Positions 7,589 through 60,700 of a stretch of 64,000 nucleotides of DNA are shown here, piece after piece. The notes below the pieces were generated by a model that made no database searches, was not told where the DNA came from, and saw nothing but the letters and a program-made list of their open reading frames with translations. The first letter of the stretch is position 1; each line of letters begins with the position of its first letter. Origin of the DNA: Balanoglossus misakiensis (taxonomy: Eukaryota > Animalia > Hemichordata); the NCBI GenBank assembly GCA_040954595.2, contig CM082583.2, forward strand, positions 280,542 through 344,541, written 5' to 3'. The translations under genes and the position numbers were made by a program.

Positions 7589-8050
7589 TTATAACACACC
7601 TCATCCACAGTCAGTGTTCTCATTCATTAATCAATTGTCAAGTAGTACGCGTTCTTTTTGTGCTGATCCATATAAAATGATGTCATCAGCCATCAGTTGT
7701 TGGAACTGTTGCACGCCAGGCATCAGTTCCAAAAAATGATGCCTGCTCACATCAAAAACAACATGTTGGGCATGTGCGATATAGAAAGCAAACAAAGATG
7801 TCATCTGCGGCCGAAGGAAAGGATAGTTGAGAAATTTCACCATACAATTTTTGTATCGTGAGTTCTTATGCGTAGCTGCGAATGAGATGTGTTACAAAAC
7901 ACATATTGACTGGCTTTTCAGGCATCAGCATACGTCTTTCACCCCTCGGGACTGTGAGTCACCCCCAAAACAGACTGTTTCCCGAGGGCGAAGGTCAAGT
8001 GAAACAGTCTGTTTTGGGGATGACTCGCACTCCCTTGGGTTACAGATGTA
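7589..8050. mobile_element. Hairpin-ended non-autonomous element; partial second copy ~8320-8470
   Basis: TTATAACACACCTCAT / ATGAGATGTGTTACAA inverted pair, then hairpin 7931-8050 with tip CCC-GA-GGGC-GAA-GGTC-AA. Confidence 0.6.
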
Positions 8051-8500
8051 TGCTGATGCCCTTATAGCCAGTCAACATGTGTATAATGTGCAGTCATGTA
8101 GGGTGCATCAATTTCACACTGATACATACAAAAGAGGACTTACCAGTCAAAAGTTACATTGTCAGGCAACAGTTCCGAAAACTGTTAAACTGTTGCCTGG
8201 CTAGGTTGGAAAGCACCATCTAGACATGCACACTCCAGAAAACTACATGTGCAATTTTATCTTTGCCTGAGACCAACTTGATGACAGTGGAGAAATGTCC
8301 TGATTTTATGCTACTGTTGGATGAGGTCTGTTATAAAACACATATGGACTGGCCGTATTCACGTACCGGTAAGAGCATAATTATGTTTGTAGGGACTGCG
8401 AGTCACCCAAAAACAGTCTGTTTTGGGGCGATTTATTTTGGGGTGACTCACAGATCCGAGGGGACACAATTTTAGTGGCAATTGATTCTGAGAAGCTTAC

Positions 8501-8750
8501 TTTTTCCTAAGGTCTCTATTGTTGGTGATGTGATCCAGCAATCCATTCAGTATGGTACTAATAACAGTGGAGTTTGACACTGCCTCCTTCATCAGTGTCT
8601 GTGTGACTTCCTGTGCATGCAATGCAAGCTGGGTATTGATGGGTATTTTGAACTGACTGTAGAAGGCTATCCCATATATCCTGTGTAGACCTCTGCAGCA
8701 CTTGATTTGACAGCCGTCTTGTTCAAAAGCCCTCTTAGAAGCTCTTTTGA
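8501..8750 (-). pseudogene. PRKDC: PRKDC exon with a frameshift
   Basis: SKELLRGLLNKTAV... then, in another frame, YGIAFYSQFKIPINTQLA...VISTILNGLLDHITNNRDLRK, resembling HGEYFYSLFSETINTELL...MVSAVLNGMLDQSFRER; 250 bp does not fit phase 0 to 2. Confidence 0.88.
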
Positions 8751-8851
8751 CTGTGGAGAACAGTTGAAATCAAACTCTTTTGAACTGTACATGTATTACA
8801 TCTTGTTCACAAGACTGAAAAACGGCCAGAAAGTGAAACACAAAGCTAGAA

Positions 8852-10868
8852 TTAAAGCTGCAAGCAGCATTGAAGGGGCCCAAGCATAGAGTTAATAACC
8901 ATTAGACTCCATTCAGGGTTGTACCATTCAAATGCGTAGGCCGTATGTATTTGCTCTCGATGTTGAGATATGGGGAAGTAGGCAACCACCCGAAATGCAT
9001 GTCCTACAACAAGTACAAACACAACAACCAAAGGTGAACTTCTACGTTGTAAGTACTTCAGTAAGTATACTTCAAAGGTCAGCTGAGGGTACCCAACATT
9101 TTTTTATTTGGTTCATATTCAAGACAACGGAAAATCCCCGCTGGTTGGGTTTGTCAAATTAGATATGGCCATAATAATGAGTTACTCGAGTAAGTTACAG
9201 GTGGCCCCAGGAATTTAGCATTTCATGACGCAGAGGGTCCTACCCTACCCCTCCAAACACCTGGCTATATATGATGTGCGTGCTAACATATGGAAAGCAG
9301 GTCAATGGACACCTGAGGTCACCCAAAAATTTGACAAAAAATTTTCATTCCTGTTTATGTCATGTGCAACAAATCCTACATTTGCAGCCCTTTCACTTTG
9401 CCTACCATTAGGTATGCATGTAATACATGAATCAAGCAGGTGTCGCAGGTATCCCCCTGTATTTGACATTTCATGATAGTTTCATCTCTCCAAATACCAA
9501 AGCTGCACCTGTACAACGGGCTGAGATATGGCACTGTATGACAGAGGTCATCCAAATCAACTTATACATTTGGGCAAAAACAAACTGACACTTACATTCG
9601 TCCCTGTGGAACAAAAACCACACATATTGCCCTGTTGGTTAGTGTCCAATTAAATGTACAAAATCAATGACTTAGGCAGGTGCAACAGGGGACCCCGCCT
9701 TTGGTATATCATTATGGTCCCATCCGTATATGCCCCCCGCACCCCCAACGCCAAAGCTGCATGCATCTGCTATGGATGCTCACTCAGCAAAAGTAGGTGA
9801 AATGTCACATAAGGTCGCCCATAACTTGACAGGAAAATCGGACTTCAAATTGATCCATGTGCAACAAATACCACGCTAGCATCCCTTTCATTGACCCCAC
9901 AATTACGCACATAATTGAGTTACACAGGTGTCACAGGTGACCCCCGAATCGGACGTATTACTAGTATTTTGGTCCCATACAGCTGCATGAAGCTGCGTGC
10001 CATTACGGGCGACCTGATAACCCCCACGGCCACCTGTGGGCCGACCCCCATACTGAACGTCCAGTTGCAACGTCACGACTGAAGTAGGAACTTTTGAACG
10101 GCAACGAAGCCTGATCTCTGATTATTGCTGGTACCATACTCCCTACGTGCAAGAAAATCACTGGTCTGCTGATGTATTTCGGCCACATTAGCGACTGAGG
10201 GTCAAAGTCCGCGGCCGCATTACATTGAATTTAACCAGTGTAGCCGGGTCTGGATAGAAACATTTGAACGGCATTAGCTAACAAACTCAGCGTAATTCAA
10301 TAAAACGCCCTAACACAGCCTGAACTCCGATAATGTGTTGTCCCAAAATTCATTCCGTGGAAAATAATCACTGGTCAGTTTACGTATTTCAGCCGATTTT
10401 CCAAGGACTACTGCAACCCGCCAGAAGTGAGTAGTGCTAATGAGATCTCCACAACATTACGTAATGACGGTCAAAGTCCGATGCCCCAGTGTCCGTCCTC
10501 AGCCCACCAAAAAATGTGAAAAATATTACAAAAATCTTCTTCTCAAAATCGACGTGGCCTAGGACCTTGAAATTTGGCACAGGGGATTTTGGCCACATGA
10601 TCTACAAAAATCGCGAAAAGAATGTACATGCCCCCATTAACGTGCAAATTAGGTCAATTTGAAAATTTCGCTCGATTATAGTCACCAAGTCACGTGACTA
10701 ATTAAAAATTCAAAGGGCAGGTGCACCAGTACTCATGGGCCCCAACCATCGTGCCAAATTTCAAGGTCCTAGGCCACGTCGATTTTGAGAAAAACGGGAG
10801 CAAAAAAACGACTCAAGAAGAAAGAAGAAAAACTCCAGCAATAATAATCAGGCGCTTGGTCCCCTAAA
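8852..10868 (+). mobile_element. HINE-like element containing a diverged ~240-bp tandem array (~9130-9960)
   Basis: AGCTGCAAGCAGCA...GGGGCCCAAGC start, GCTTGGTCCCC end; AGGTGTCACAGGTGACCCC-like motif about every 240 bp; same start motif at 63981. Confidence 0.55.
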
Positions 10869-11175
10869 TATCATGTATAAACTCATTGGTTTGGTGTGCT
10901 TTGGTGTGCTTTTGTGTGGTGCAGTGTGCCCTTAACAAACACAATTTTTAAAAGCTTTGAGTCAATTTAAGGATATCTAAAAATTTCTCTGAGGCAGCCC
11001 TATACATTTGAATGTGGTGTTGATAATTTTCTTGAGTGAACATTGAGCTTGTTGAGTCAGTAGCGTGACAAATGGGCTAGAGGGCACACTGCTGTGATAT
11101 GCCATGGTGCGGAGACACTAGGGTAGGGAACAACATTAACAATAACAGACATAAATAATAAAACATGATACAGAG

Positions 11176-11802
11176 AGCAATATCACGATTTGAAGCCTGC
11201 ATGAGGGATGGTGCTCTCTGACCACAATATTGATGATGCCCGAGCCGCAGGCGAGGGTATCATCAATATTGTGGTTAGAGAGCACCAGCCCGAGGGCAGG
11301 ATTCAAATCGTGATGTTGCCCAAGCATCATGTGCTATTAATTTTATTACGCCGAACATTTGAACATATATACACTACAGCATAGAAGAACGTAGACTCGC
11401 GTCCATATGTCGTACGTTGCTGAGAATGTAAAATGTCTCGATCTCCCAAGAACTATACCTACTTCGAACTCAGACAATTTTGAGGATACTGCGCTGTTGG
11501 TTGCGATTTTGGTGTATTTACTGTCTGTTTGCATAAAATATCGTCCATTTGAACAGGTATTAAGCTTATGTGTCGCTTTGAAGCCATAGATGCGGGAGTT
11601 GACTGATCGTGAAGGAAGCCATTGAACAACAGTTAGTATGCGCAGAAGTCGCACGCAGAACACCAAAACAACTCAGCGGCCAATATCAGCGCACGCGACA
11701 GGGCTTTATCAACTCTAGCCATGTTATATCACTTTTTTTTCTATATCACGTGAGCGCATCTCAGCCAATCATGAATACGGTATAATACATGAGGTGTAAT
11801 AA
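11176..11802. mobile_element. Hairpin-ended non-autonomous element
   Basis: Hairpin ~11176-11320 with tip CC-GA-GCC-GCA-GGC-GA-GG; body bounded by TTATTACGCC...GGTGTAATAA. Confidence 0.7.
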
Positions 11803-11854
11803 TGAATATTATAACAACATGACAAAGTTCAATTAATCAATCAATCAATCAATC

Positions 11855-12492
11855 AAAAATCGTGTCAAGGACACAATGGTCCCATTGAGGAATTGCACAA
11901 GAAAAAATGTACACCGGAGTACACTTTTTCACATATACAGACAGACAGACACACACACACACACATAGCGAGAGATCAATGGGCAAGCACTGACTGACCC
12001 ATAAGCTGCCAATGGCATTTGTACTGTACATACACTAAATAGAACAGCTGGTCTCTTTAAAACTTAGCCAGTTATGTAATCATTCAAGAATTTGCTGTGT
12101 ATATAAACAACTCAATAAAGTAAATACACACCACTTCGTAAAGCAATCTGACCAGTAGTTCTTGAGTTACTGAGTTTTGACCAAATTCACAGTTTCCCAG
12201 CTAATTTGCATATTTTTGGCAATGACAACTTCATTTGAACGAACTCCCATCTACAGCCCAGCCTGCATCTGCAAACAAAATATCAAGGTGATACACGCAG
12301 AGGTTTTTTAAGTTTTTGATGTGGACGGACATACAGACATACACACATACACACATACATACATACATACATACATACATACATACATACATACTGTTAC
12401 ATACATACATGCATGCATACATACATACATACATACATACAGACGCAACCTGTCCCATAAGGTCCCATGGTACATACCAATGGGACCTAATC
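11855..12492 (+). mobile_element. HINE-like element with (CA)n and (CATA)n microsatellites
   Basis: Colinear with 22288-22895; terminal GGTCCCATGG...ATGGGACC hairpin. Confidence 0.7.
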
Positions 12493-12623
12493 AAAAACAT
12501 TTATATGGCGGTAATATCCAGATGTACTGTTCAGTGGCGGCCAATGGTTGTTCACACACTGTAGGCTATTCCAAACAAATATGTCTTCAGTTTTATCTAA
12601 TAAGACTCAAGATTGGGTGTTAG

Positions 12624-12805: not shown

Positions 12806-12827
12806 CTTTACTTCTGAATATCATTAC

Positions 12828-14037: not shown

Positions 14038-14113
14038 CTGTAATAGATAATGATAAGACACTGTCATTTTGGTGGTCTATTTTGCTCAGAGATTATGAGG
14101 ATCTAATGACAGA

Positions 14114-14114
<1 letters not shown>

Positions 14115-15420: not shown

Positions 15421-16090
15421 TTTATCATACATGCAACGCCTGTATTTGGCACTTTCTATTGTTCTCGCCCCGAAGATATTTTACAGTACTACACTGAGTG
15501 CAATATATCTTCACTCCGCGTCTCGAACTATTTTTGAGAACGCGCGGCGCGACAGTTCGCTGCGTGTGCGCGCGACGTATGGGGCATAGGACACTAGAGG
15601 AGAGGGGTGTTGTAAAATTCGGTTATTAGAAGCTGTAATAACGTTTTCAAAGCTGGCAGTTTTGCCATGTTGAACGTATCATTTTTACTTCTTTGAAATT
15701 CTCAATGCAAAATAATTGTTAACATGATATTTTGAAAGAGAACGTAGACAATTTTATTTAGAATGCGGATGTGCCCATCGTAATGAAAGCTGCCAACCCC
15801 CTTAAAATGATACTACGGCCCACACGTCATACGTCACAACATGGCTACTGCCGTGATCCCAGGGCGCCCGTTCAAATTTGAAATCGTTTTTCTCGGCGCA
15901 TTTTCGCAAATTGTACTGTTTTATAGGTAGGCATGTATGATAAAGGGGTTATTACACGAATTTTGGTCGATAACGCGACGCATTCTCATGATCTCCGTAT
16001 TTTGACTTGTTGCTTCGCAACTCGTCCAAAAACGGACATCACTCGAATACGACGCGTTATCGACCAAAATTCGTGTAATAACCCCTAAAT
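15421..16090. mobile_element. Hairpin-ended non-autonomous element
   Basis: TTTATCATACATGC...GCATGTATGATAAA, then hairpin ~15944-16086 with tip GTTGC-TTC-GCAAC. Confidence 0.75.
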
Positions 16091-20652: not shown

Positions 20653-21874
20653 TTATCACATGAACTGGCCTGTATAGCCACCAGTGTGACGAAGAACAGG
20701 TCGAACAAAAAATCCGAATTTTCCCCTGTTCTACGTCATCAACCGGAACTATTTTCACTGATTCGCCCGTCGCTATAACTTCCTTGTAAAACGGAATAAC
20801 AAGTGCATAAACCCGTAGTTGTACACGATTGAAATAAAAATGACGGTTCCATGACGGTTGTGAAAGAATATTGCTTGGTAAAAGCAATACGAGAAAGGTA
20901 GAATTTGAAAAGTCAACGCTACGATCGTGAATGTGTGCTTGCAGCTAGCCAGCCTGGTCGATCCCAAGCGAGCCAGCACACTTGATTTTAGGCTTACGGA
21001 AGTTACGAGAATGATTTCGAGCCACCTGAACGGGACGACTAACACTCTGTATTCTGTTCACCGGTCAACGAAATGTATAAGACGTGGAAAAACGTCGCAG
21101 TTCATTTGTTTGAGAATCGAAAACATTTGTGTGGGGTTCGAGGATGAGATTCTGTACGAGGGTTGTAGTTTCTGCGGAAACACAACAGCGCTGACTAGCC
21201 AGGCCGAAGCAAACACAACCTTGAACATCTTTCCTGCACTAATATTTTTAATATCCTGTCACAATATACGGTTTTAGGATATATGGCAATGGAACTGTGA
21301 TATTTTTTCATAAAGTTTTACATGAAGCGCGTCATTTTTTCTGTCAAACTGTGACTTGCAGCATAACTTTGCGGGCGAACCCGACGCGATGACTTGTGTT
21401 GACATGTACACAGCGCGAGACGATGATTGACAGGCAGAATGTATCAAAATTCTGGCCCATGTGACTGACTCCGCGAATCTGATTGGTAGACAAGACGCAA
21501 AAGTGTATAAACTTGAAAGTCGATTTCACTTTATGAATGAAAGGGATTCCATTATTAGCATATCTCGTGGGGGCCACAGATCGTTGCGCAGGGGAAAGAA
21601 CGTAATCCCGCTAAATAAACTGCAAGGCCGCTCGAATATTTTAGCAAGATATTGGAATATTTTTATCCTACCTCTTCTAACGAAAATAAGAAGACTGTTC
21701 ATGTGATAAATATATAATCCCATGATATTTTTCTTTGTTTAACATCATCGTATACTCGTGGTTTTCGCGGAGTCGTACAACTTCTGGCCTACGGCACGAA
21801 GTTGCACGGCTCCGCAAAAACCACTCGTATACGATGACGTCAAACAAAGAAAAATATCATGGGATTATGTATAA
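20653..21874. mobile_element. Hairpin-ended non-autonomous element (~1.2 kb); relatives at 36451-39579 and 58295-58787
   Basis: TTATCACATGAAC...GTTCATGTGATAA, then a ~160-bp hairpin 21710-21873. Confidence 0.8.
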
Positions 21875-23316: not shown

Positions 23317-23871
23317 CTGTCAACAATGAACAGTAAACAGGACTGAGTAATCACAATTGGTGATGGACTGGATTTCAGCAGAAATGAAAAAAAATGTTCT
23401 GAAAGATCAAACAAAGAAATGTGTAAACAGTCAAACATTGTCATCTGTGTCAATCTACTTACAGGTAACATGACTACAGGAGCTTCAGCCAAGCCAAGCT
23501 TTTCACTTGGGAGATTATTGAAATCAATTTAAAACTCAGTAACTCCAACTTCGGGTTATTTTCTCAATACTTTTGTTTTGGTGGTCACCTTTCATTGAAC
23601 AATGAATGGGCAAGTGCTCGCTCACTTCTTCAGTGAATTTCACTGTTTGTTTATCTTATCATAAAAACTTGGGCACCACAGTCCTTTGGAAAACAATATT
23701 CATGTGTGGTGATTTAAATCAATGATGCAAGAAGCAGAATTAATCACAGGATTAATGGCTTCTGATTGAAAAATACTAAATGCTTAATATGCCATATGCC
23801 GCACACAGAGTGATCACATAAGTCAATTGAACCTCTGTTCCAAAGGACTAAAATGATTGCAACGTTTTAAT

Positions 23872-24442
23872 TAAGCAATAACCCCCGCCGCAGGCGGGTA
23901 TACACGAGATTTGGGTACAATTCGAGACATATAGCACGAGCCGTCAGGCGAGTGCTATATGGAGGGAATTGTACCCAAATCGAGTGTATACCCGACTGAG
24001 GCGGGGGTTATTGCTATTATATTATATCAACAACTGTTTTTGTGGCATATCAGTGTCATTTTCGTACCGAAACGGCGTCAGAAAGAGAAATTACGATCGT
24101 GAACCAAAATGGCGACGACGAATGTAAACACGCGCGGCCGGGATCGAGCATTAAACATGCAGCAGACGACAAAAAGTGACAAGACGGGCATCGCGCGTGG
24201 CAAAGCGACAAATATATCCACAGAGCAGTTCCAAAATAAAACGTCCGTTAATTCAACAGTATTTTTGTTTTATTTATTTGGTTTAAACACGCGCGACTGT
24301 GGTTTAACCGCACATTTTTGCTGCCGAATGCTAGTTCAGGGGCCCGTTTTACCACTGCTAGCCATGGTAAAACAGTATTTTACCATCGCTGGATTCAGCT
24401 CTCGTCCAATCAGAATCACGGACGGTAGCATGATATAATATA
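23872..24442. mobile_element. Hairpin-ended non-autonomous element
   Basis: Hairpin ~23875-24014 with tip GCAC-GA-GCC-GTCA-GGC-GA-GTGC; body TATTATATCA...TGATATAATA. Confidence 0.75.
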
Positions 24443-25086
24443 ATATTATATTTATTTTACAAAAACTTGCATCTGAGCTTTACTTTAAAATACTTCCATT
24501 TACTAGTAGTACAAGTACACATCAGTTAACATTGACAGCTAGGCATGATGTCATAGATGTAGGACTTCAAAATTGACATTCTAAACAGTGGGGGCGCTCT
24601 ATCATAGTAGGTTTTAATGAACATGTGTATTTAATTTCGTGAATCAGATATATTGATGAAAACTGCGTATTTTCACATACGCTTATAGTTAAGGCATTTG
24701 CTGTATCTAGTCACATTACAGTAATACACCAGACATGTTCTTTTACTCAACTCAATGTATGTAAGTTCAATTTCTGACACACTCAGATTACCCAAGTCCA
24801 TGTGACCAACTCTATTGCAAGTATACAGACTTGAACTCCAGAAAACTAGTCACCTACAATACTTGAACTGGAGCCACATCCAAAACTTGACTTTGAGATC
24901 TTTTATCAAATCAGTTTTCCTTTTAGAATTATAATTCCCATGCAATTTTTGTGACAGAAGAAATAAAGATATTCCCAGAAAAAAAAACAGTTTTCTCTTT
25001 AAAGATCCAACCTTACCATAGAAAACAAACGGGTTTAGACTGAACCATGGTGGTGATAGGGTTAAGCCAGAGCATGTATCAAAATA

Positions 25087-28371: not shown

Positions 28372-28812
28372 TTATATAGATTCTCACACTCCTGGCATGC
28401 TGAGAGTGTGGGATCAGAGTGTAAGAACAAATCAATCCCACACACTCACTGAATCGAAAGCTGTATATGACGCGAGCGCTGATTGGATGACAAAGTGATT
28501 TTTAATAACGTGCGCTAAATGTTATCCAATGACAGGATAAAGAAACTACAACATGCCAGATGACAACTCAAGAGTCATTTATTCAATGTTTTAAGACGAA
28601 TTTGGCTAATTTGTGCCCGTGTGAGAAATATAATCTCATACACAAAGGACCTAGGATCATATTTCCCACACTTGTCAGGGATATTTTGTCCCACATTCGC
28701 CTGCGGCTCGTGTGGGACAGAAAATCCCCAACTCATGTCAGAATTATGACCCCTAGTCCTTGGGAGTGTGAGATTCTATTAATCTCACAACCTTAGGACC
28801 TGGGATAAGATT
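28372..28812. mobile_element. Hairpin-ended element (copy B ~51713-52153)
   Basis: Hairpin ~28632-28775; tip TC-GCC-TGC-GGC-TC, which reads GA-GCC-GCA-GGC-GA on the minus strand. Confidence 0.65.
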
Positions 28813-34345: not shown

Positions 34346-36929
34346 TTCTGTCACAAAAAATCTGAAATTCCTCTTGCAAGCGAGTAAGTTGAGCCTTAAG
34401 GTCACCATTAATTTTGTCAATATGATCAGCTTTATCTTCAGTACATTCCAAAGATTTTGTGACAGCTTCTAGTAATTATTTTTGGACTGTTTCTGTATTT
34501 AAGGGACAGTGCTGGGTATTATGGGTTTCACCCGTCTTATTCAAAAAGGAATTGACAACACATCTAAACATACTTTCCCAAATTTGTGTTAGGAAGCGAT
34601 GAGTTAGCTTGAAATTTGTACACTGTACTAGGGTTTCCAAAGTTCCCCCTTTATGATTGAACCCTGCCAGATGTTTTAGGCCAGCATCCCAGAATATTTT
34701 CATGATGACTGGTTGGTAATTTTTTAGAGTGTGCCAGTCTCTGATAAAAGGCTGCAACCAGTCTAAATTTGCACCATACATGTCTTTTAACTTTATCAGG
34801 TGATGGGAAGTTTTCCCATCACCAACCACAACCAGGTATTTTATTCTTACACCAACTCTGAATGTAACATATACAGCTTATTGATAATGTTATGGACAGT
34901 TTCAATGGTGTCTGCGTGTTCACTTGCTATGCCCAAATAAATGACATCTGAGCATTCACTGTCATCACTGTTAGCATTTGTTGCTAATGTTGATTTAAAA
35001 TCCCCAAAAACTGTTTCTATATCAGCTCTGTGCATTGCATTTTTCTGTAGAGCAAAAATGAATTGTCAGAAAACAGTTCTGACCAAGCAATGGCTTCTTC
35101 TTGTTTAATGTCAAAATCTGACAGCGAAATTGATGACCGTGGTTGATGTTGTCTCAGTAGAGGTGGTTTAAATACTACATCATCATGAACAGTATCATTG
35201 GATTTTTTTCTCCGTAAATGTACGGGCTTTTGCAATCAAACCTGTACCAGTATTTTTTTAGATAGATCTGTCAACCATGATTTTAGTATTATTTCCACAA
35301 ATTGCCAAAAATTTCATTCATTTCAGAGTCTACTGTATTTTGTGAACAAAAGCCACTGTTTAATTCCTGCCACCGTTCAAATGAATTCTGTGCATTTTCA
35401 CTCACCAGACTATCTTTACTTTTAATTAACTGCCTGTTAAGAAGCAAATCATAATGGCCTGGTTGACCTGGCCTGTCTGGTGTGTACAAGAGACAGACAG
35501 GCTCAGTCTTGGAGAACACATCACCATCACCTCTTGCAAATATATCATTCTGCTTGGTGTATATATGTAATGGACATTTTGCAACATACACTACAGATAA
35601 CATTTCTGGCATACCAGCATATTAATCTGCCTTTTCCATACATTGTGTCCTGTGCAAAATGTCCATATAACGAGTGCCGTCTAACAGGACATCAAGTTGT
35701 GCATCATCCATTCCTTCAAAGTATATATGATTGGCACGCATTATGTCTACTGTATCTGCTCTTAACTTGTCTGCGAATATTTTCTCTCGGTCAGCTAAAA
35801 TTGGGTCAGAAGGGAGTCCACTAGGTAGATGATCGCAATTTTGCAATGCAATATCATTTCTCACAGAGATGCTCCTGAAAAAGCACCTTCCACCACCATA
35901 TATGTTGATTAGCTTAAAATCTTTGACAGTTGAATGTTTGTCATGACTGCCAAAAACAATATCATCAACACTGTTCAAAATTGACTTTGGTTTTGGTTGG
36001 ACCATTTGATAAGAGGTACCGTGGAAACCTCTGTCCTTTGGATCAGCTCTAGCAGCTGCATATTTAGCTGATTTATCAATATTGTCAATGGAAGTTATAC
36101 AAAATGCATTATTTGCAATATTTTACTCTGTGAAATCAGCTGATGTTCTTTTGTTGATAACTCCCAACATGTATCTATGCAATGTATCTCCAGAACAAAT
36201 AATACCAAATCAATTTAGAATTTTCACTAGAGTAGATGACCTACTATAACCTTCAACAATATCAGCCAGGTAAGTATGCAATGGGTAAGTACAATGATCA
36301 GAACAAGTGAACAATAGCATACACACAAAACAAACGCCTGAGGAATCGTGCTCTACTCTCCATAGAGTGCTGGTCATAAAATCCATAGTAGTGTTTATTC
36401 CATTCAAAGTTGGGGCTTTTTAATTTACTGCATTCACTGTTGTTCAACGTTTTATCACATGAACTGGCCCCTATAGCCGCTTGTGTGACGTAGAACAGGT
36501 CGAATAAAAAATCCGAATTTACTCCTGTTCTACGTCATCAACCGGAACTATTTACACTGATTCGCCCGTCGCTGTAACTTTCTTGTGAAATGGAATAAAC
36601 AAGTGGATGAACCCGTAGTTGTACATAAGTCATATAAAACTGACGGTTCCATGACGGTTCCGTAAGAATATCGCTGGGTAAAATCAATACGAGAAAGGTA
36701 GAATTTGAAACGTCAACGCTACGATCATGAATGTGTGCTTGCAGCTAGCGGGCCTGGTCCCGAGCGAGCCAGCACATTGTCTTGATTTTAGGCTTACGGA
36801 AGTTACGAGAATGGTTTTGTTCCAGCTGAGCGGGATGACTAACACTCTGTATTCTGTCCACTGGTCAACGATAAGTATAAGACGTGGAAAAAACATCGCA
36901 ATTCATTTGTTTGAGAATCGAAAACATTT

Positions 36930-38815
36930 TAGTGGGGCAGTTAACAAAAAAATCGTGCACTTTGGGTTAAAAGCATGAAACTTGGTACACTTATGCATTG
37001 ACCCATGGCGGCCATTTTCTGATATGGATCCAAAATGACAGCGCCCTCTAGTGGCCAGAAACAGACATTCATACTTAAAAACCGTGCACTTCAGGTTAAA
37101 AGCCTGAAACTTGGTACACTTATGCATTGACCCATGGCGGCCATTTTCTGATATGGATCCAAAATGACAGCGCCCTCTTGTGGCCAGAAACTGACATTCA
37201 CACTTTCCCCCAATTAATGGCACTTTTTGGTCATTTGTAACACTCTGAAACAGGAATGTGGGTTGTAAAACATGCTTGCTACCATACATTCATGTGTATA
37301 CTGTGGAATACTTTTTGTTCGCGTGGAATTTATTTTGGCTGCTTTCGCGGAGGTAATTTTTGCGCGAAAATTTGTTCCAGCGGTATGTTTTGAACACAAT
37401 AGACATGAATATTAATGAGCTAGATCGACTGACGCAGTGACCTTTGACCACTGATTACTTGCATGTTACGTCTATGGAAAACAATCTGACACGGAACACG
37501 CACTCACGCTCACGCACTCACATGCCGACAGTCATTATCGACACCTAGTAATTGACACCATAACTAAAACTGGTTAAAAACAATAAAATCAAATGTTTGC
37601 CGACTCGATTGACACCCAAAACGCATTGTTTGTCACCTAACAGCAGCCTGTGATGTTTGTGTTTGACGACTTAGCTTTGTCGATGTCAATCTGACACGGA
37701 ACACGCACTAACGCACTCACATGCCGACAGTCATTACCGACACCTTGTAATTAACACCATAACTAAAACTGGTTAAAAACAATAAAATCAAATGTTTGCC
37801 GACTTGATTGACACCCAAAACGCATTGTTTGTCACCTAACGGCAGTCTGTGATGTTTGTGTTTGATGACTTAGCTTTGTCAACGTCTAATTTCAATTAGC
37901 GTACAGCGCCTTGGCTGATGACAATGTAAAGCGATCAGCGCGAAAATAAAGTCGCGCCGACGTATCGATTTTATCCATTGCGCGAAAATATATTCCAGCG
38001 ATAATAAAGTATTCCACAGTATTATCCTAATCCTGATATACATGTATCAGATCAATCTTGATTACATCTTCCTTCACAGTAACAATGACCACTGCTGTCA
38101 GACTAGACCTAAAGCACCTACAGAATCATGTCCATGACTTTTGGCCACTGATTTCCTGAGGTTGACTCTTTTCTTGGGCTTGACTAAGAGTTGTCCAACT
38201 TGATTTCCACTGGGATTCTGTTGGTTTGATATAGCTTTGCTAGGTTTCTCACAGCACATGTTCTTTAGATGCTGCCTGTATTCTCGAGAATGCTTGACTT
38301 TCTGGAGAAGAGGTGTTGTATTATCCCTTTGCATGACTTTGTGTATTGAACTGGTTGTTATTTCGAAGAACAAATCGTTCAATTAGTAACATACAAGATT
38401 GATCTGATGCATGTACATCAGGATTAGGATAATATTCAAAGGAATGTATGGGAGCAAGCATGTTTTACAACCCACATTCCTGTCTCTGAGTGTTAAACTT
38501 GCCCAAAAAGAGTCATTAATGGGGGGAAAAGTGTAAATGTCAGTTTCTAGCCACTAGAGGGCGCTGTCTTTTGGGATCCATATTGGAAAATGTCCGCCAT
38601 GGGTCAATGAATAATTGTACCAAATTTCATGATTTTAACCCAAAGTGCACAATTTTTAAGTATGAATGTCTTTTTCTGGCCACTAGAGGGTGCTGTAATT
38701 TTGGATCCATATCAGAAAACGGCCGCCACGGGTCAATGCATAAGTGTACCAAGTTTTATGCTTTTAACCCAAAGTGCACAATTATGCCAAAATGTGGGGT
38801 TTAGCTCCTGCACTA
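36930..38815. mobile_element. TAGTG...CACTA element with long subterminal inverted repeats, 3-bp TSD TTT (Academ-like non-autonomous)
   Basis: Empty site AAACATTTGT at 21121; filled ACATTT|TAGTG...CACTA|TTTGT. Confidence 0.8.
37301..38019. mobile_element. TA-TSD MITE with an internal ~205-bp tandem duplication
   Basis: TA|CTGTGGAATACTTT...AAAGTATTCCACAG|TA. Confidence 0.75.
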
Positions 38816-40964
38816 TTTGTCTGGGGTCCAAGGCTGAGATTCTGTACGACGGTTGTATTTCCGCGGAAGCACAACTGCGCTGACTAGCCAGGCCGACGCA
38901 AACGCAACCTTGAACCTTGAACATCGTTCCTGGACTAATATTTTTAATATCCTGTCACAATAACGGTTTTAGGATATATGGCAATGGAACTGTGTTTATT
39001 TTTTCATAAATTTTACAGTGAAGTGCGTCATTTTTTCTGTCAAACTGCGACTTGCAGCATAACTTTGCAGGCAACTCGACGCGATTAATTGCTAAGATGT
39101 TGTGTTGACATGTACACAGCGCGAGACAATGATTGACAGGCAAAATGTATCAAAATTCTGGCCCATGTGACTGACTCCGCGAATCTGATTGGTAGACAAG
39201 ACGCAAAAGTGTAAAAACTTGAAAGTCGATTTCACTTTATGAATGAAAGTGATTCCATAATTAGCATATCTCGTTGGGGCCACAGATCGTTGCGCAGGGG
39301 AAAGAACGTAATCCTGCTAAATAAACTACAAGGCCGCTCGAATATTTTAGCAGGATATTGGAATATTGTATCCTACCTCTTCTAACGAAAAATAAGAAGA
39401 CTGTTCATGTGATAAATATATAATCCCATGATATTTTTCTTTATTTAACGTCATCGTATACTCGTGGTTTTCGCGGAGTCTAGCAACTTCTTGCCTACGG
39501 CTCGAAGTTGCACGGCTCTGCGAAAACACTCGTATACGATGACGTCAAACAAAGAAAAATATCATGGGATTATATATAAAAATAGTATTCCATAACACAG
39601 GGTCAATCTCACTGACAATATATTCAACATCAAGTGTACTCAGATCAACAGTGTTTGTTTTGCAGTAATTACTGAATTTTTAAGATTGCTGATAAATGCT
39701 GACATTTAATTTCACAGCCACCAAATCAAGCATTTTGAAAAAGTCAACGTCAACTTTACTCAAGTCTCATACTTGCTTTTCAAGCCTCTCTATCTGTTTC
39801 TCAGCTTGCACAACATACTGGGGATGTTCGACAAGTGCATTTTGGAGGGCAATAGTGAGATCTGAACCCGTTCGGTACAAAAAGGTGGAGAACTTTCTAC
39901 TCACTTTTGATACAACAGAAAGGTGAATTGGATAATACACACATAGAAATTCCCGAATAAGCCAGCTATTAGGTTTTCTGTGGAATTCCACTGGTTGTAC
40001 CTTGACCTTGGGTCGCAAAGTCTGATATTCATCGTCTAAACAATCATTGAAATATTGCCTGACGTCAAACAATAGAAGGAGCACTTCTCCTAAAAACACA
40101 ACAGTTTTCCAGCATGCAAAATTCACCAAGTCGGTGTCACAGCTGCAGCCTTTTTGTAGCATTGTGACATATTTTTTAATTTCTTCAGCAAGTGCTATAT
40201 CACTCGACATAATTAGGCCTTGTTGAATACTACACGTTGCTTTTTCCGCTAAAGCAACAAATGTTTATAACATTTCAAACAAGTCAGGCTGTCTTGAGTA
40301 AGGGCAAATGGTGTGTTAGTTTGTTGGTGAATTGTTTGCACCATATCAAAATCAGGGATTTTAAACAAATTGTTTGCCCGTGATAAGCACGAAGTACACA
40401 AGGGATGGCTTTTTCTCACAGCAAGGATGTAGTGATGTTGACACAGTGGAAATGATGAAAATCCTTTAAAACCTGAGTTGGCTATACTCAATTTTGTACA
40501 CAGTCCTCCTCGCCTGAAATCAGCTCTATAATGTCGCGTAAAAAAATGGCCTATTTCGCGACCCTTCAGCGGGGCCCACGGTAACGGCTACATGGTATGA
40601 AGTACTTTCCCTCATTAACATATGTTAATGAGTACCATGCGATCTGACTGTACAGACACACATGCACAACGAGAGATTAACAGGCAAACACTGGCTGACC
40701 CATAAGCTGCCAATGGCATGTGTACTGTACACACAGCAAATGGTCTCTTTAACAGATAGCCAGTTATGAAAACATGCAGTTACCAATCACTGTTATTATT
40801 GACAAATTGCATCCAAGTCCAGACCCAGGCTTGAATACAATTTTTAAACAATAACAACATTGCTTACCCTGCTTCACCGAGCTGAACAAGAAATGATGGT
40901 TGATAACCAGCATAATACTGAATAAAAATTCAAAAGTTACAAATATAGGACCTTTCGTTGCCCA

Positions 40965-41330
40965 TATATTATATTACCATGGTCTGTGCGTTGCATTTTA
41001 ATTGGTCAAGATGAACGACATCACTGACCACAAATACCCAGTAATGGTTTGTTTACATGCCCGTAAATCTGAATAGTAATATTAGCAAATAGTTCAGTGA
41101 ACACAACATTTTGCATAACACAAGTTCTGGGGCCCCTAGTCTTGTGTGTGGGACATTTTCATAAATATTGATGGTTTTCTTGAGATTGTTGGTAATGTAA
41201 TGGAAATAAATGTAGGGCTCGGGCTCTAGGAAAGCCAAATTTCATGGGCTCAGAAGCCTTGCCCATGAATTTTGGGCTTTCCCCTCGACCTTGCCCAAAA
41301 ACAAACGTTAATGGTCAGGGCGTTGTGCAT
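40965..41330. mobile_element. Decayed hairpin-ended element (copy B ~60188-60555)
   Basis: ATTATATTACCA / TGGTAATGTAAT pair, then imperfect hairpin ~41214-41297. Confidence 0.5.
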
Positions 41331-41355
41331 TATTTCTATATTGTGTTGATCTTAC

Positions 41356-45336: not shown

Positions 45337-45560
45337 TTATATTATATCATGCTACCGTCCACAATTCTGATTGGACGAGAGCTCAATCCAGCGATGCTAA
45401 AATTAAGCAATAAAACATCCCTAGCCATGGTGTACCACGAGATTTTGACCAGTTCACAACATATACGCAAGAGCGATAGCGAGTGCGTATATGGAGTTGA
45501 ACTGGTCAAAATCTCGTGGTATACCATGGCTGGGGGTGTTTTAATGCTATTATATTATGC
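45337..45560. mobile_element. Minimal hairpin element related to 23872-24442
   Basis: Hairpin ~45407-45548 with tip GA-GC-GATA-GC-GA; shares TATTATATCATGCTACCGTCC...CTGATTGGACGAGAGC with the 24400-24440 end. Confidence 0.7.
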
Positions 45561-51392: not shown

Positions 51393-54300
51393 CTGAAAAC
51401 AGAAAACAAAAACATCCATTGTAATTATTCAAGTCAATACCTATCCTCCCTTCCTTTAAAAATTTTCTTAAATTGAACAAATTCACATGGCTTTGAAATT
51501 AAGTATTAACAGTGATATTTCTAATATTTCTAACAGGCCTGACTTTTCTAAACGTTCAGTTTCTTTGTGGATTTGTAGAAATGATGTACAAACTGAGCTG
51601 TCAGGTCATAACTGTTTGTGCTTTGGCATGAACACATATCCCAGAATGCCCTACAGGGTTGGCAAAGAAATTGATAAACTCTTCACCTAAAATTTCAAAC
51701 TCGTAGATCTTAATTATATAGATTCTCACACTCCTGGCATGCTGAGAGTGTGGGATCAGAGTGTAAGAACAAATCAATCCCACACACTCACTGAATCGAA
51801 AGCTGTATATGACGCGAGCGCTGATTGGATGACAGAGCGTTTTTCAATAACGTGCGCTAAATGTTATCCAATGACAGGATAAAGAAACTACAACATGCCA
51901 GATGACAACTCAAGAGTCATTTATTCAATGTTTTAAGACGAATTTGGCTAATTTGTGCCCGTGTGAGAAATATAATCTCATACACAAAGGACCTAGGATC
52001 ATATTTCCCACACTTGTCAGGGATGTTTTGTCCCACATTCGCCTGCGGCTCGTGTGGGACAGAAAATCCCCAACTCATGTCAGAATTATGACCCCTAGTC
52101 CTTGGGAGTGTAAGATTCTATTAATCTCACAACCTTAGGACCTGGGATAAGATTTCTCAGATGAGTTGGTGAAATTTTTGCTTGTGTTAGTCAACATATA
52201 CCTGATAAGTGTAAAAAATTGCATCAAGGACACAGTGGTCCCATTCAGTCTACACGGAGTACATATACACAGTCAGATCGCACGGTGCTCATTTGCATAT
52301 GAAAGTTCATCAAGCGAGCGACCGTTAACTTTCAAACAGACTGCAATAGGCCAATTTTCAAGGTGATTTTCAACTTGATTTTTATGCTCTGTTGTGCAAT
52401 AAAATACCATGTTAGCTGGATAAATTACGAAAGTGATTCCCATTTTTCACTGCAGACGTAAATTTTATGAAAATCTGTCGGTAATAGTAGAAGTTTTTAA
52501 CGTGTTTTCAGTGGTATGTTGGTGACCCCGAAAGAGACGTCCACAAACGTGTCAAAAATCATTTGAAAACGACCTCGGAAGTTAACCAAACTTTCCTGAC
52601 AGAGAGGTCTAATATTGGTCCCGACATCCGTGAAAAGAAATTAATTCGAAATGCTATTTTCCATATTATGATGTTCAGTATCAGTGATTGGTGATGGTGA
52701 TTCTAATAGTGGTGACTTATCTGTATATTTTGGGCATACCCCATACTTTTTCGATGTGGTACAGAATCCAGGGTTCCCATTATGTGGATTACTGCAGTCA
52801 TTGCATTGACACGCAGGGCCACAACCATTGTGGGTCTTATAAACATTTACAACATCTGCTATTACAAGTTGGCATCTTTTTGCAGCCACACCCTTTTGTT
52901 AGCAACTCCAAATTATTTTTCACTTTTTCTAAATTGGCATCACTGTCCCAAATAATATCAAGTTCGCCGTTGCTTAGTCTGTATCCATAATTATTGAATA
53001 AGGGAAACGTAACATGGCACTGATCGGCCTGGGACCATAACTGAGAGACCCAGCATGATCTTTTCCAGTGCAGTTGTAGGGCTTCAAAGGAAGGGATACA
53101 TTCTTCCTCATACTGGATACGTGGCCAAATTGTTTCTCGTATATATGTAAGCCATTTGATGTGGTTATCTTTAAGACTGTTAGTGACACTGGCTACTTGT
53201 TGATAAAGTTCAAAAGGATGAGATGCATCAAATGCTTGGAAATGTTTCTTAACATAAACACTACCTTTTAAACGTATGAAAGCGAAAATTCCATTCCCTA
53301 CACTGTCTACTGTTGTGTCTATCAGTGTTCCAGGTATAAGGGTGCCACTAGTTATAAATTCAGGGTATTGAAAAAATGTCTTGTAGAAAGATATCTTTCC
53401 GATGCCTGCAAAGTATAGTCACAACCTGTGCATATGAACACTGTTTGAAATATTTTGCCTACATATTGGAGGGGAATATGTTGCAAATAAGGGTCTAAAT
53501 TTAAATCTGATTTGAATTGATTCATGTCTAAATAAGTGAGATTGGATAAATCATTATCCAGTTGTACAAATATCTCCTTTTGAACATGTTGATATAGTAC
53601 TGGGAGGAGAACATGATAAGTATCGGTATCAGGGGAGTAAATAACACCTTTCTTGTAAGAGGACTGAACTGCATGAAGGATGCATCTACTGTCAGCTTCT
53701 TCATGACAACTTTTGGCTTCCCACTCAGACACAATTCCATTACTACCGACGAAAAGACTCTTGTCCCTATTTTCCCCATCAAAGCCACCTGCTGTAATGA
53801 GGACATGATCACCTTGCAGAGCCGGTACAATTATTTGTAAAGATGTGGCTGACAAGAAGTTCACTAGTTTTCTCTTGCTTGGCCTACAATTAATGTATGT
53901 TTTGAGCTAATATTATTGATTTCCTATTTTTTATGCATTTGTTTGTATTTTTCCATGTTATTGGTAAAAAGTCTTCATTTCTGAAAGTGATGGGCTTACT
54001 TCTTTTAAATTTAGTATGAAGCTTCCCAATTGTTGTCTGAGTAACCATAGTTTTGTTCAAATTGTTGCAAAATTTGCATATTTATAATTTTGAGCAATAT
54101 TTGCCATTTTTGGTCAATTTTTTTTTCTTTAAAACCGCATGCCAGATTGCTTTGCAATTTTGTAGGCATGTTCGTAGGTGTAACCCAAATAATATGTTGT
54201 AAAAAAATGTGATATTTTCATAAATGTGTTATAGGGGAAACTTTTTCAATTTTTGTCAAAAATTGTTTTCCTGAAACTGCTTGTCATATTGCATTGACCT

Positions 54301-56181: not shown

Positions 56182-57279
56182 TTCTGTCACAAAAAATCTG
56201 AAATTCCTCTTGCAAGCGAGTAAGTTGAGCCTTAAGGTCACCATTAATTTTGTCAATATGATCAGCTTTATCTTCAGTACATTCCAAAGATTTTGTGACA
56301 GCTTCTAGTAAACATTTTTGGACTGTTTCTGTATTTAAGGGACAGTGCTGGGTATTATGGGTGTCACCCCTCTTATTCAAAAAGGAATTGACAATACATC
56401 TAAACATACTTTCCCAAATTTGTGTTAGGAAGCGATGAGTTAGCTTGAAATTTGTACACTGTACTAGGGTTTCCAAAGTTCCCCCTTTATGATTGAACCC
56501 TGCCAGATGTTTTAGGCCAGCATCCCAGAATATTTTCATGATGACTGGTTGGTAATTTTTTAGAGTGTGCCAGTCTCTGATAAAAGGCTGCAACCAGTCT
56601 AAATTTGCACCATACATGTCTTTTAACTTTATCAGGTGATGGGAAGTTTTCCCATCACCAACCACAACCAGGTATTTTATTCTTACACCAACTCTGAATG
56701 TAACATATACAGCTTATTGATAATGTTATGGACAGTTTCAATGGTGTCTGCGTGTTCACTTGCTATGCCCAAATAAATGACATCTGAGCATTCACTGTCA
56801 TCACTGTTAGCATTTGTTGCTAATGTTGATTTAAAATCCCCAAAAACTGTTTCTATATCAGCTCTGTGCATTGCATTTTTCTGTAGAGCAAAAATGAATT
56901 GTCAGAAAACAGTTCTGACCAAGCAATGGCTTCTTCTTGTTTAATGTCAAAATCTGACAGCGAAATTGATGACCGTGGTTGATGTTGTCTCAGTAGAGGT
57001 GGTTTAAATACTACATCATTATGAACAGTATCATTGGATTTTTTTCTCCGTAAATGTACGGGCTTTTCTCACAGGTGCACTCAAACCTGTACCAGTATTT
57101 TTTTAGATAGATCTGTCAACCATGATTTTAGTATTATTTCCACAAATTGCCAAAAATTTCATTCATTTCATAGTCTACTGTATTTTGTGAACAAAAGCCA
57201 CTGTTTAATTCCTGCCACCGTTCAAATGAATTCCGTGCATTTTCACTCACCAGACTATCTTTACTTTTAATTAACTGCC

Positions 57280-57770
57280 TGTTAAGAAGCAAATCATAAT
57301 GGCCTGGTTGACCTGGCCTGTCTGGTGTGTACAAGTGACAGACAGGCTCAGTCTTGGAGAACACATCACCATCACCTCTTGCAAATATATCATTCTGCTT
57401 GGTGTATATATGTAATGGACATTTTGCAACATACACTACAGATATCATTTCTGGCATACCAGCATATTCATCTGCCTTTTCCATACATTGTGTTCTGTGC
57501 AAAATGTCCATATAACGAGTGCCGTCTAACAGGACATCAAGTTGTGCATCATCCATTCCTTCAAAGTATATATGATTGGCACGCATTATGTCTACTGTAT
57601 CTGCTCTTAACTTGTCTGCGAATATTTTCTCTCGGTCAGCTAAAATTGGGTCAGAAGGGAGTCCACTAGGTAAATGATCGCAATTTTGCAATGCAATATC
57701 ATTTCTCACAGAGATGCTCCTGAAAAAGCACCTTCCATCACCATATATGTTGATTAGCTTAAAATCTTTG
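57280..57770 (-). pseudogene. OTU cysteine-protease (deubiquitinase) domain within the Academ transposase ORF; copy A ~35440-35925
   Basis: IYGDGRCFFRSIS...LR...YAGMPE...PLHIY...LY...GHYDLL, with the catalytic D/C and H motifs. Confidence 0.9.
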
Positions 57771-60700
57771 ACAGTTGAATGTTTGTCATGACTGCCAAAA
57801 ACAATATCATCAACACTGTTCAAAATTGACTTTGGTTTTGGTTGGACCATTTGATAAGAAGTACCGTGGAAACCTCTGTCCTTTGGATCAGCTCTAACAG
57901 CTGCATATTTAGCTGATTTATCAATATTGTCAATGGAAGTTATACAAAATGCATTATTTGCAATATTTTCCTCTGTGAAATCAGCTGATGTTCTTTTGTT
58001 GATAACTCCCAACATGTATCTATGCAATGTATCTCCAGAACAAATAATACCAAATCAATTTAGAATTTTCACTAGAGTAGATGACCTACTATAACCTTCA
58101 ACAATGTCAGCCAGGTAAGTATACAATGGGTAAGTACAATGATCAGAACAAGTGAACAATATCATACACACAAAACAAACGCCTGAGGAATCGTGCTCTA
58201 CTCTCCATAGAGTGCTGGTCATAAAATCCATAGTAGTGTTTATTCCATTCAAAGTTGGGGCTTTTTAATTTACTGCATTCACTGTTGTTCAACGAATTGC
58301 TAGGACGTTGTGTTGACATGTACACAGCGCGAGACAATGATTGACAGGCAGAATGTATCAAAATTCTGGCCCATGTGACTGACTCCGCGAATCTGATTGG
58401 TAGACAAGACGCAAAAGTGTAAAAACTTGAAAGTCGATTTCACTTTATGAATGAAAGTGATTCCATAATTAGCATATCTCGTTGGGGCCACAGATCGTTG
58501 CACAGGGGAAAGAACGTAATCCCACTAAATAAACTACAAGGCCGCTCGAATATTTTAGCGGGATATTGGAATATTGTATCCTACCTCTTCTAACGAAAAA
58601 TAAGAAGACTGTTCATGTGATAAATATATAATCCCATGATATTTTTCTTTATTTAACGTCATCGTATACTCGTGGTTTTCGCGGAGTCTAGCAACTTCTT
58701 GCCTACGGCTCGAAGTTGCACGGCTCTGCGAAAACACTCGTATACGATGACGTCAAACAAAGAAAAATATCATGGGATTATATATAAAAATAGTATTCCA
58801 TAACACAGGGTCAATCTCACTGACAATATATTCAACATCAAGTGTACTCAGATCAACAGTGTTTGTTTTGCAGTAATTACTGAATTTTTAAGATTGCTGA
58901 TAAATGCTGACATTTAATTTCACAGCCACCAAATCAAGCATTTTGAAAAAGTCAACGTCAACTTTACTCAAGTCTCATACTTGCTTTTCAAGCCTCTCTA
59001 TCTGTTTCTCAGCTTGCACAACATACTGGGGATGTTCGACAAGTGCATTTTGGAGGGAATAGTGAGATCTGAACCCGTTCGGTACAAAAAGGTGGAGAAC
59101 TTTCTACTCACTTTTGATACAACAGAAAAGTGAATTGGATAATACACACATAGAAATTCCCGAATAAGCCAGCTATTAGGTTTTCTGTGGAATTCCACTG
59201 GTTGTACCTTGACCTTGGGTCGCAAAGTCTGATATTCATCATCTAAACAATCATTGAAATATTGCCTGACGTCAAACAATAGAATGGCGTGTTTTCTGAG
59301 GAGCACTTCTCCTAAAAAGACAGCAGTTTTCCAGCATGCAAAATTCACCAAGTCGGTGTCACAGCTGCAGCCTTTTTGTAGCATTGTGACATATTTTTTA
59401 ATTTCTTCAGCAAGTGCTATATCACTCGACATAATTAGGCCTTGTTGAATACTACACCTTGCTTTTTCCGCTAAAGCAACAAATGTTTTATATCATTTCA
59501 AACAAATCAGGCTGTCTTGAGTAAGGGCAAATGGTGTGTTAGTTTGTTGGTGAAATGTTTGCACCATATCAAAATCAGGGATTTTAAACAAATTGTTTGC
59601 CCGCGATAAGCACGAAGTACACAAGGGATGGCTTTTTCTCATAGCAAGGATGTACTGACATTGACACAGTGGAAATGATGAAAATCCTTTAAAACCTGAG
59701 TTGTCTATACTCAATTTTGTACACAGTCCTGTTCGCCTGAAATCAGGTCTATAATGTCACGTAAAAAAATGGCCTATTTCGCGACCCTTCAGCGGGGCCC
59801 ACGGTAACGGCTACATGGTATGAAGTACTTTCCCTCATTAACATATGTTAATGAGTACCATGCGATCTGACTGTACAGACACACATACACAACGAGAGAT
59901 TAACAGGCAAACACTGGCTGACCCATAAGCTGCCAATGGCATGTGTACTGTACACACAGCAAATGGTCTCTTTAACAGATAGCCAGTTATGAAAACACGC
60001 AGTTACCAATCACTGTTATTATTGACAAATTGCATCCAAGTCCAGACCCAGGCTTGAATACAATTTTTAAACAATAACAACATTGCTTACCCTGCTTCAC
60101 CGAGCTGAACAAGAAATGATGGTTGATAACAAGCATAATACTGAATAAAAATTCAAAAGTTACAGATATAGGACCTTTCGTTGCCCATATATTATATTAC
60201 CATGGTCTGTGCGTCGCATTTTAATTGGGCAAGATGAACGACATCACTGACCACAAATACCCAGTAATGGTTTGTTTACATGCCCGTAAATCTGAATAGT
60301 AATATTAGCAAATAGTTCAGTGAACACAACATTTTGCATAACACAAGTTCTGGGGCCCCTAGTCTTGTGTGTGGGACATTTTCATAAATATTGATGGTTT
60401 TCTTGAGATTGTTGGTAATGTAATGGAAATAAATGTAGGGCTCGGGCTCTAGGAAAGCCAAATTTCATGGGCTCAGAAGCCTTGCCCATGAATTTTGGGC
60501 TTTCCCCTCGCCCTTGCCCAAAAACAAACGTTAATGGTCAGGGCGTTGTGCATTATTTCTATATTGTGTTGATCTTACCTGTACACTCTCCATTGACCAA
60601 TCAATATTCCACAGCACAAGTGCAATAAAAAGAGCCTGCTGTATTCACACACTGGCCTCCACAAAGATCTGCTCTCTCCATATATTCATTGAGAAAAATC

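Follow-up and report, generated by a model that had tools for sequence, protein, structure and literature searches.

Recombination on folded single-stranded DNA is known from integrons and phage CTX. DIRS elements are tyrosine-recombinase elements in which an internal segment is complementary to the termini; the accessible text of PMC13465315 mentions this internal complementary region. According to the available part of Nivina et al. 2016 (PMC5027507), the body of an integron cassette is flanked by a short repeat and an imperfect hairpin, the latter becoming complete on end joining, and attC sites keep their structure without keeping their sequence, with bottom strands skewed towards G-T pairs and purines and a GAA tip. 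Helitron2 elements have asymmetric inverted repeats of 8-15 bp, one of which has a hairpin on its outer side, and they produce no target duplication (accessible text of Bao & Jurka 2013, PMC3627910). CryptonA elements have been reported in hemichordates (PMC3212892); animal Cryptons were described by Kojima and Jurka (2011) as being without terminal repeats, their mode of movement was not shown, and their ends were entered as undetermined (PMC3212892, supplement 1). The available text of the Crypton papers gives a double-stranded circle model and mentions no hairpin, mirror or strand skew. Searches of open-access papers on Cryptons, Eulor and the end motif, outside Repbase Reports, Dfam notes, paywalled journals, article figures and the Glomhopper supplements, returned no description of the design presented below.

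A stretch of 64,000 nucleotides of Balanoglossus misakiensis (contig CM082583.2, positions 280,542 to 344,541; the window) contains gene-less mobile elements with a common end layout of hairpin, mirror, body and short end repeat. They share with integron cassettes the placing of the body and the completion of the hairpin, with attC the conserved structure, the skew of purines and G-T to one strand and a GAA-type tip, with DIRS the internal segment complementary to the termini, and with animal Cryptons the short, abundant, gene-less copies in an animal. Unlike attC, they have no RYYYAAC/GTTRRRY cores, IntI, attI platform or cassette array, their arms are longer, and the insertions are dispersed in an animal genome in an intron context. 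Unlike DIRS, they lack a reverse transcriptase and long terminal repeats, and the mirror adjoins the terminal hairpin.

Inventory, ends and target sites

Once a segmental duplication is taken out, the non-duplicate set comprises nine elements of seven families, whose termini read TTA...TAA; three further copies are duplicates and are not counted. The strand listed is the one on which the hairpin comes first, and the termini of five families were placed by eye, partly guided by the layout rule itself.

7590..8086, minus: element 7589; hairpin 7899-8082, mirror near 7883-7900; GA/AA mid-stem on the minus strand, cap 7984-7998 flipped to the plus strand; ends by eye
8320..8430, minus: partial second copy of mirror and hairpin arm of element 7589, from alignment
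11151..11802, plus: element 11176; hairpin 11153-11342, mirror from 11343; cap GA-GCC-GCA-GGC-GA at 11242; CCAAT 38 nt from the right end
15422..16088, minus: element 15421; hairpin 15944-16086; mirror 12/12; cap GA-GTTGC-GAA-GCAAC-AA; no CCAAT
20653..21874, minus: element 20653, 1.2 kb; hairpin 21710-21872; mirror 12/12; cap decayed to GT/CA, GA/GA retained mid-stem
23871..24444, plus: element 23872; hairpin 23874-24015, containing three purine loops; mirror 12/12 at 24017-24028; CCAAT 38 nt from the right end; contigs show both ends and the empty site
28372..28782, minus: element 28372; decayed hairpin; cap GA-GCC-GCA-GGC-GA near 28697; weak mirror, 7/12
36452..39579, minus: element 36451, second insertion of the 20653 family; hairpin 39416-39577; sits in an Academ-like reading frame and holds a nested TIR element at ~36930-38815
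40968..41341, minus: element 40965; decayed hairpin with AA/GA mismatches; mirror 11/12; CCAAT 38 nt from the right end
45337..45556, plus: composite 45337; inverted 23872-type right end 45337-45403 and hairpin 45406-45548, no body; cap GA-GC-GATA-GC-GA; mirror 10 nt
51714..52124, minus: duplicate of 28372 by segmental duplication
58295..58787, minus: duplicate of 36451, hairpin-bearing part only, truncated by a deletion
60190..60570, minus: duplicate of 40965, limits approximate

A sequence-only reading had drawn attention to these elements; its hairpins and tips stand, and several details of its layout had to be corrected. It counted 58295 as an insertion of its own, which self-BLAST places, together with the copies near 51714 and 60190, in a segmental duplication of 97-98% identity. 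Composite 45337, taken for a body bracketed by inverted repeats, consists of a 69-bp right end in inverted orientation, which shares 93% identity with the right end of 23872 and adjoins a hairpin; its two TTATATTAT copies are in direct orientation. The bodies are mostly unrelated in pairwise comparison, as it had claimed, except that 23872 resembles 45337 and that 11176 and 23872 have related right ends.

The absence of a target duplication was borne out for 23872, which has sharp ends and an empty site. Its left limit, 23871, appears as a loose end in 26 contigs and its right limit, 24444, in 39, 37 and 3 contigs, with unrelated flanks, and the empty-site joint, seen in two runs of one sample, skips 573 bp, the element length. 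For 36451 the surrounding reading frame indicates a net insert within one base of the element length, so these two measurable scars differ by one base: the net 573 of 23872 corresponds to TTA..TAA, and the frame at 36451 implies one base less. Both sites agree with animal Cryptons in having microhomology only and no true target duplication. The two insertions of the 20653 family have identical termini, TTATA...GATAA, and internally deleted copies are visible as joints in contigs. A 6-bp TAATTA target duplication was rejected, as it holds at 23872 only and other targets differ.

Hairpins, strand skew and joined ends

Long hairpins were present wherever they had been described. Four of them reached 42.5-55 in the ungapped scan, and 7589 reached 24.5, against best scores of 10-12.5 in 10 shuffled windows, and self-BLAST added the gapped hairpins 28620-28789, 39416-39577 and 45406-45548. 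Their total length is 143-190 nt, with ~100 nt for the decayed 40965. The tip sequences agree with those first quoted: GA stands on both sides in four of the nine non-duplicate hairpins (11176, 23872, 28372, 45337), GA/AA in four (7589, 15421, 36451 at 39491, 40965) and GT/CA in one (20653). A G-N(N)-A loop is found in 8/9 and is closed by C-G in all eight, and GA/GA loops recur along the stems beyond the tip. The claimed strand specificity holds for the two mid-stem GA/AA loops of 7589 and fails for its cap, which lies on the strand against the layout rule and pairs poorly, its 4-bp stem containing a G-G and a G-T; the 40965 loop likewise shows its GAA on the other strand.

By itself the tip counts as weak evidence, because a descriptor search of the window gave two strict hits against none in each of 12 shuffles and four relaxed hits against 0-4. 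The cap also occurs in viral contigs without any long stem (33 loci, at most 31/70 positions paired) and, within the same window, in the subterminal repeats of a TIR element whose target duplication is 8 bp; it is therefore a general stabiliser of single-stranded DNA and not diagnostic, and the tip was rejected as a family marker. Among bacterial sequences, the cap GA-GC-GAA-GC-GA is present in 14 attC-like sites, and an integron integrase scored above the cut-off in four of the five host genomes tested. The CCAAT motif, attributed to most elements, is missing from the 7589 and 15421 bodies and has a background of 1.86 per kb; it exceeds chance only in the three families where it stands at a fixed distance of 38 nt from the right end. 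Within the 23872 family, the common variant of the tip, GTCA to GTTA, preserves G..A, and neither loop is an RNA GNRA loop.

The strong signal is the strand skew of the whole stem rather than the tip. On the hairpin-first strand of seven hairpins, arm mismatches are purine-purine 47 times and pyrimidine-pyrimidine 6 times, although such columns are not independent, and G-T outnumbers A-C by 23 to 8, whereas five control TIR pairs gave 19 against 16. Counted per loop, 15 are purine-only and 2 pyrimidine-only (p=0.002). Whichever genomic orientation an element has, the purine-purine excess follows the hairpin-first strand (24/0 and 23/6), and this strand folds better than its opposite in 7/9. 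Structure is kept while sequence changes, 16 of 59 pairs being changed on both sides between two related hairpins, with the structure taken from one of them; since template switching homogenises palindrome arms, paired changes alone are no proof of selection.

The joined ends equal the internal mirror plus two unpaired bases in five of the seven families (15421, 20653/36451, 23872, 11176 and 7589). All of the last 12 nt agree with the mirror in three families and 9-11 of them in three more (p<0.01 each); 28372 reaches 7/12, a non-significant value (p about 0.34). Once joined, the ends lengthen the hairpin, as happens in an integron cassette, and the predicted fold gains 5.5-12.5 kcal/mol in each of the five copies for which it was computed. 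The likely candidate recognition site is the hairpin base, where the ends meet the mirror.

Candidate enzymes and mode of movement

None of the 197 open reading frames of the window matches a recombinase or HUH family, nor is a Pfam Rep or helicase domain present, and 66 DUF3504 recombinases gave no tblastn match to it. Protein searches with a DNA-PKcs exon and the Academ-like reading frame as queries returned no match. DUF3504 was found in two of 380 genomes of one order, in none of 400 genomes of a class sample searched twice (one genome unscored) and in 0/3 and 0/5 entries of two small sets; the sole strong match of an alignment search in 151 genomes was a contig already found. Plasmids gave no match, and viral scans gave none and one weak match at 31%. 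Element ends were not found on two contigs with DUF3504 recombinases (L182, L184). A recombinase-motif pattern and an outer-arm pattern had no hits in viral contigs, and 17 metagenomic loci with the outer-arm pattern included none with a long hairpin.

We consider the elements to be probably non-autonomous CryptonA-type transposons in which a tyrosine recombinase would cut and rejoin the folded strand at the joint (probability roughly 0.5). Eulor5/6 and the salmon Crypton-N elements appear to begin like element 23872, and the likely assignment to Cryptons rests on this putative resemblance of ends and on the Repbase filing of Eulor5/6. That filing places them with salmon Crypton-N elements (available text of PMC5753468). 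The published CryptonA trait of no terminal repeats does not hold here, where six of the seven families have an asymmetric repeat of 12-14 bp and no symmetric TIRs; the 2011 statement is a negative one and may reflect what was looked for.

Under the CryptonA reading, the hairpin-first strand would form one long stem once both ends are brought together, stabilised in vivo by sheared G-A pairs and the C-G-closed GNA loop, which would also break the palindrome in duplex DNA. The right end would pair with the mirror, so that the TAA|TTA joint would lie in duplex beside a 2-nt bulge, a putative counterpart of the attC R box and its unpaired spacer. A DUF3504 recombinase encoded elsewhere could then exchange one strand with a target sharing at most one base of sequence with the element, and replication would resolve the product. 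More tentatively, and at somewhat less than even odds, animal CryptonA elements could share this end grammar of GA/GA-loop hairpin, mirror and 2-nt bulge, recombine as single folded strands and represent a convergent counterpart of attC. The earlier interpretation is partly supported: structure is conserved over sequence, and an enzyme that recognises folded single-stranded DNA stays a candidate.

Crypton derivatives might instead move through a recombinase acting on a double-stranded circle (Goodwin model); hairpin and mirror would then provide additional binding sites, form a cruciform or signal replication of the circle. We regard this as rather unlikely, although it is the published model in the available text of PMC3212892 and PMC13465315, the joint contains a TAATTA palindrome, and the 28372 joint resembles two inverted arms flanking a short spacer. 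A duplex site requires neither the mirror, the constant 2-nt excess nor the purine and G-T skew of one strand, and the targets do not share any direct repeat of 4-6 bp. A non-autonomous rolling-circle origin, Helitron2/Helentron-like or through another HUH nuclease nicking the folded strand, appears less likely still. The elements do have asymmetric inverted repeats of 8-15 bp, one of them 0-2 bp from an end, as well as T-rich ends; a T|T reading is possible for the 23872 site, and HUH enzymes suit the folding of single-stranded DNA. The sequence-only reading had left the choice between a Crypton-type recombinase and an HUH nuclease, and the former fits better because the hairpin distance and T|T targets of Helitron2 fail: the inner repeat lies 140-190 nt from the end instead of 20-30, and T|T is possible at only four of eight sites, several with ends set by eye. 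The hairpin is five to eight times longer than in Helitron2/Helentron HLE2, as far as the accessible texts of PMC3627910 and HELIANO (PMC11417382) go. The first 40 nt of the repeat-first end appear to fold weakly, at -1.4 to -5.8 kcal/mol without a shuffled reference, and the fold takes in the repeat only in the 20653 family. Another family of the window, with a short palindrome and a microsatellite, has the look of a usual Helentron derivative and differs from these elements.

Decayed palindromes or RNA structures, with chance or mutation bias behind the shared pattern, would accord with the exact caps in only 4/9 hairpins, the near-chance relaxed descriptor, the small sample and the non-independent mismatch columns, and we hold this explanation to be very improbable. 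Both genomic orientations within one host gene show the skew, which is therefore not transcription bias, and deriving GA/GA from a perfect palindrome requires two transversions. An Rfam search gave no match, and the best-supported 40 of the 94 variant sites of the 23872 family all lie outside the GA/GA loop bases.

The rule of TTA...TAA ends, mirror plus two bases and one-strand GA loops allows elements of this kind to be located and their limits set in any genome, and it yields a precise substrate for a cleavage assay. If the CryptonA reading is true, the folded single-stranded DNA chemistry of integrons and phage CTX would be extended to animals, with a possible structure-guided insertion tool, and the ends would also account for hairpin-shaped ancient repeats such as Eulor5/6.

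Setting and layout of the hairpin elements

The window is animal DNA dense in repeats, and a profile search of its ORFs found five minus-strand ORFs at 7279-23528 that match DNA-PKcs (PF20502), thus placing the first five hairpin elements, with both orientations represented, in introns of a DNA-PKcs gene. A segmental duplication relates 25875-45096 to 48467-63435 at 95.5-98.8% identity, its copies differing by insertions and deletions; an EGF-like exon lies within it near 27900-28163. With duplicates removed, nine elements in seven families remain, named by their approximate starts: 7589; 11176; 15421; 20653 and 36451; 23872 and 45337; 28372; 40965. Other repeats and fragments are listed here.

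Further repeats in the window
44620-44681, duplicate 62940-63001: lone hairpin-arm fragment of the 11176 family, without body
49481-50054: TIR element of ~570 bp with TAG...CTA ends and an 8-bp target duplication, not present in the duplicated copy at 26718
30860-40590 and 52650-59780, minus strand: decayed transposon frame with weak DUF6589 and CXC matches, an OTU-like stretch and 159 homologues
5585-5911, 11855-12490, 22287-22894: CATA-microsatellite family with a short terminal palindrome
36930-38815: TIR element nested in the 36451 element, its subterminal units repeated; 14426-14610 holds a related piece
3136-4301 (units ~225-240 bp) and 47441-48468 (units ~160-170 bp): tandem arrays

We take the decayed frame to be Academ-like and the helicase-like fragment contained in the 49481-50054 element to be AcademH-like; the CATA family is presumably Helentron/HINE-like, its short palindrome contrasting with the long hairpins.

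The long terminal hairpins described by the sequence-only reading occur far above chance expectation, and the tips it quoted were confirmed on re-reading. The common layout it proposed holds in most elements but is broken by 45337, in which an inverted right end adjoins the hairpin without a body, and by 7589, where the cap and the mid-stem GA/AA loops are on opposite strands. The cap is exactly GA/GA in 4/9 hairpins, GA/AA in 4/9 and GT/CA in 1/9. A G-N(N)-A loop is present in 8/9, all eight with a C-G closing pair, the pair described as giving DNA GNA loops the greatest stability (PMC3201870).

Ends, insertion scar and mirror

Contigs of three runs from one sample were compared with 23872. 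Matches break off at 23871 in 26 contigs of X1, and at 24444 in 39, 37 and 3 contigs, the flanks beyond being unrelated (agreement 0.43-0.6), and in two runs a joint from 23867 to 24441 omits 573 bp, the letters between being marked as not known; it probably derives from host-repeat copies without the element. Both 20653-family insertions share exactly TTATA...GATAA. Taken together, these breaks, the joint and the identical ends indicate that the elements run TTA...TAA without target duplication. The 36451 copy interrupts the Academ-like frame. Where homologues have L-T/S after the W-N motif, it lies six residues on in 18/20; from this spacing the net insert comes to 3127 bp, 1 bp short of TTA...TAA, although the scar is fixed only to within one base because the frame has further breaks.

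Directly inside each hairpin lies the reverse complement of the element's last 12 nt, the mirror, which matches at 12/12 in 15421, 20653/36451 and 23872, 11/12 in 40965, 10/12 in 7589 and 9/12 in 11176 (p<0.01 for each of these six families, random placement) and at 7/12, not significant, in 28372. When the right and left ends are abutted, they equal the mirror plus two bases in 5/7 families; joining makes the predicted fold 5.5-12.5 kcal/mol more stable and, in the cleanest copies, leaves a 2-nt bulge at the joint. Three families have CCAAT at 38 nt from their right end. On L218, an AT-rich contig of an unrelated assembly, a capped hairpin occurs with CCAAT 37 nt before TAA on the same strand, in a different arrangement.

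Strand skew along the stem

Elements were oriented from layout only, hairpin first, before arm mismatches were classified in seven hairpins; 36451, a second copy, and 40965, too decayed, were omitted, as was the 7589 cap from the column count. Purine-purine mismatches outnumbered pyrimidine-pyrimidine ones 47 to 6, and G-T outnumbered A-C 23 to 8, against 19 versus 16 in five ordinary TIR pairs. Since mismatch columns are not independent, loops were also counted by eye, giving 15 purine-only versus 2 pyrimidine-only (p=0.002, flipped cap included, one mixed loop set aside). Plus- and minus-oriented elements show the skew alike; additional GA/GA or GA/AA loops lie 21-39 columns below the tip in 6/7 hairpins, and 45337 has one at 13. 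Folding energy is lower on the hairpin-first strand in 7/9, 36451 and 40965 being near-ties in the opposite direction. The strand bias, originally claimed for the tip, is a property of the whole stem.

Candidate enzyme and proposed mechanism

As in integron cassettes, one end has a short repeat and the opposite end an imperfect hairpin that circularisation completes. Unpaired bases are described as marking the recombined attC strand, which is also richer in G-T pairs and purines and frequently has GAA at its tip (PMC5027507). A bacterial genome scan gave 129 loci, and 14 distinct sites had both attC cores together with the cap GA-GC-GAA-GC-GA; an integron integrase was present in 4/5 tested host genomes. 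The ORF ending at the site lay opposite the cap in 5/5 informative sites, one having an additional ORF on the cap strand, and nine were uninformative.

Capped sites on outside contigs
L052, L057, L098, L103, L126 (bacterial genomes): attC-like sites with the GA-GC-GAA-GC-GA cap
L182, 1339-1421: 40-bp GA/GA-capped hairpin, GA-GCC-TCT-GGC-GA, with a perfect 35-bp stem, intronic in a gene for a DUF3504 recombinase

Window ORF searches and comparison with 66 DUF3504 recombinases (their source being two animal-like contigs within bacterial assemblies; one recombinase is annotated in Ptychodera flava) revealed no recognisable coding content in the element bodies, and no element ends were seen on either contig. 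The L182 recombinase gene retains R, H-x-x-R, H and Y; its intron hairpin, whose loop is TCT and which appears to have inserted later, does not link ends and recombinase.

The ends of Eulor5/6 and of salmon Crypton-N elements, we assume, resemble 23872. Repbase groups these elements together (PMC5753468). The elements here fit the criteria of Helitron2 poorly. Given this filing, the assumed likeness and the poor Helitron2 fit, we consider it quite likely that a Crypton-type recombinase moves the elements; that it also acts on the folded strand is a closer call, at about 0.52. The enzyme would most likely act at the joint of the two ends. Because the cap is also seen without a long stem at 33 viral loci, and in the TIR element at 49481-50054 on subterminal mini-hairpins (GA-GGGCC-GAA-GGCCC-GA), we regard it as stabilising folded single-stranded DNA in general.

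Animal Cryptons were described as having no terminal repeats (Kojima and Jurka), and the 2026 Glomhopper paper again puts forward the model of short direct repeats, flanking repeats not having been found (PMC13465315). The literature searched, which did not extend to Repbase Reports, Dfam or figures, holds no account of this end design. The mechanism proposed for the hairpin-ended elements is testable.
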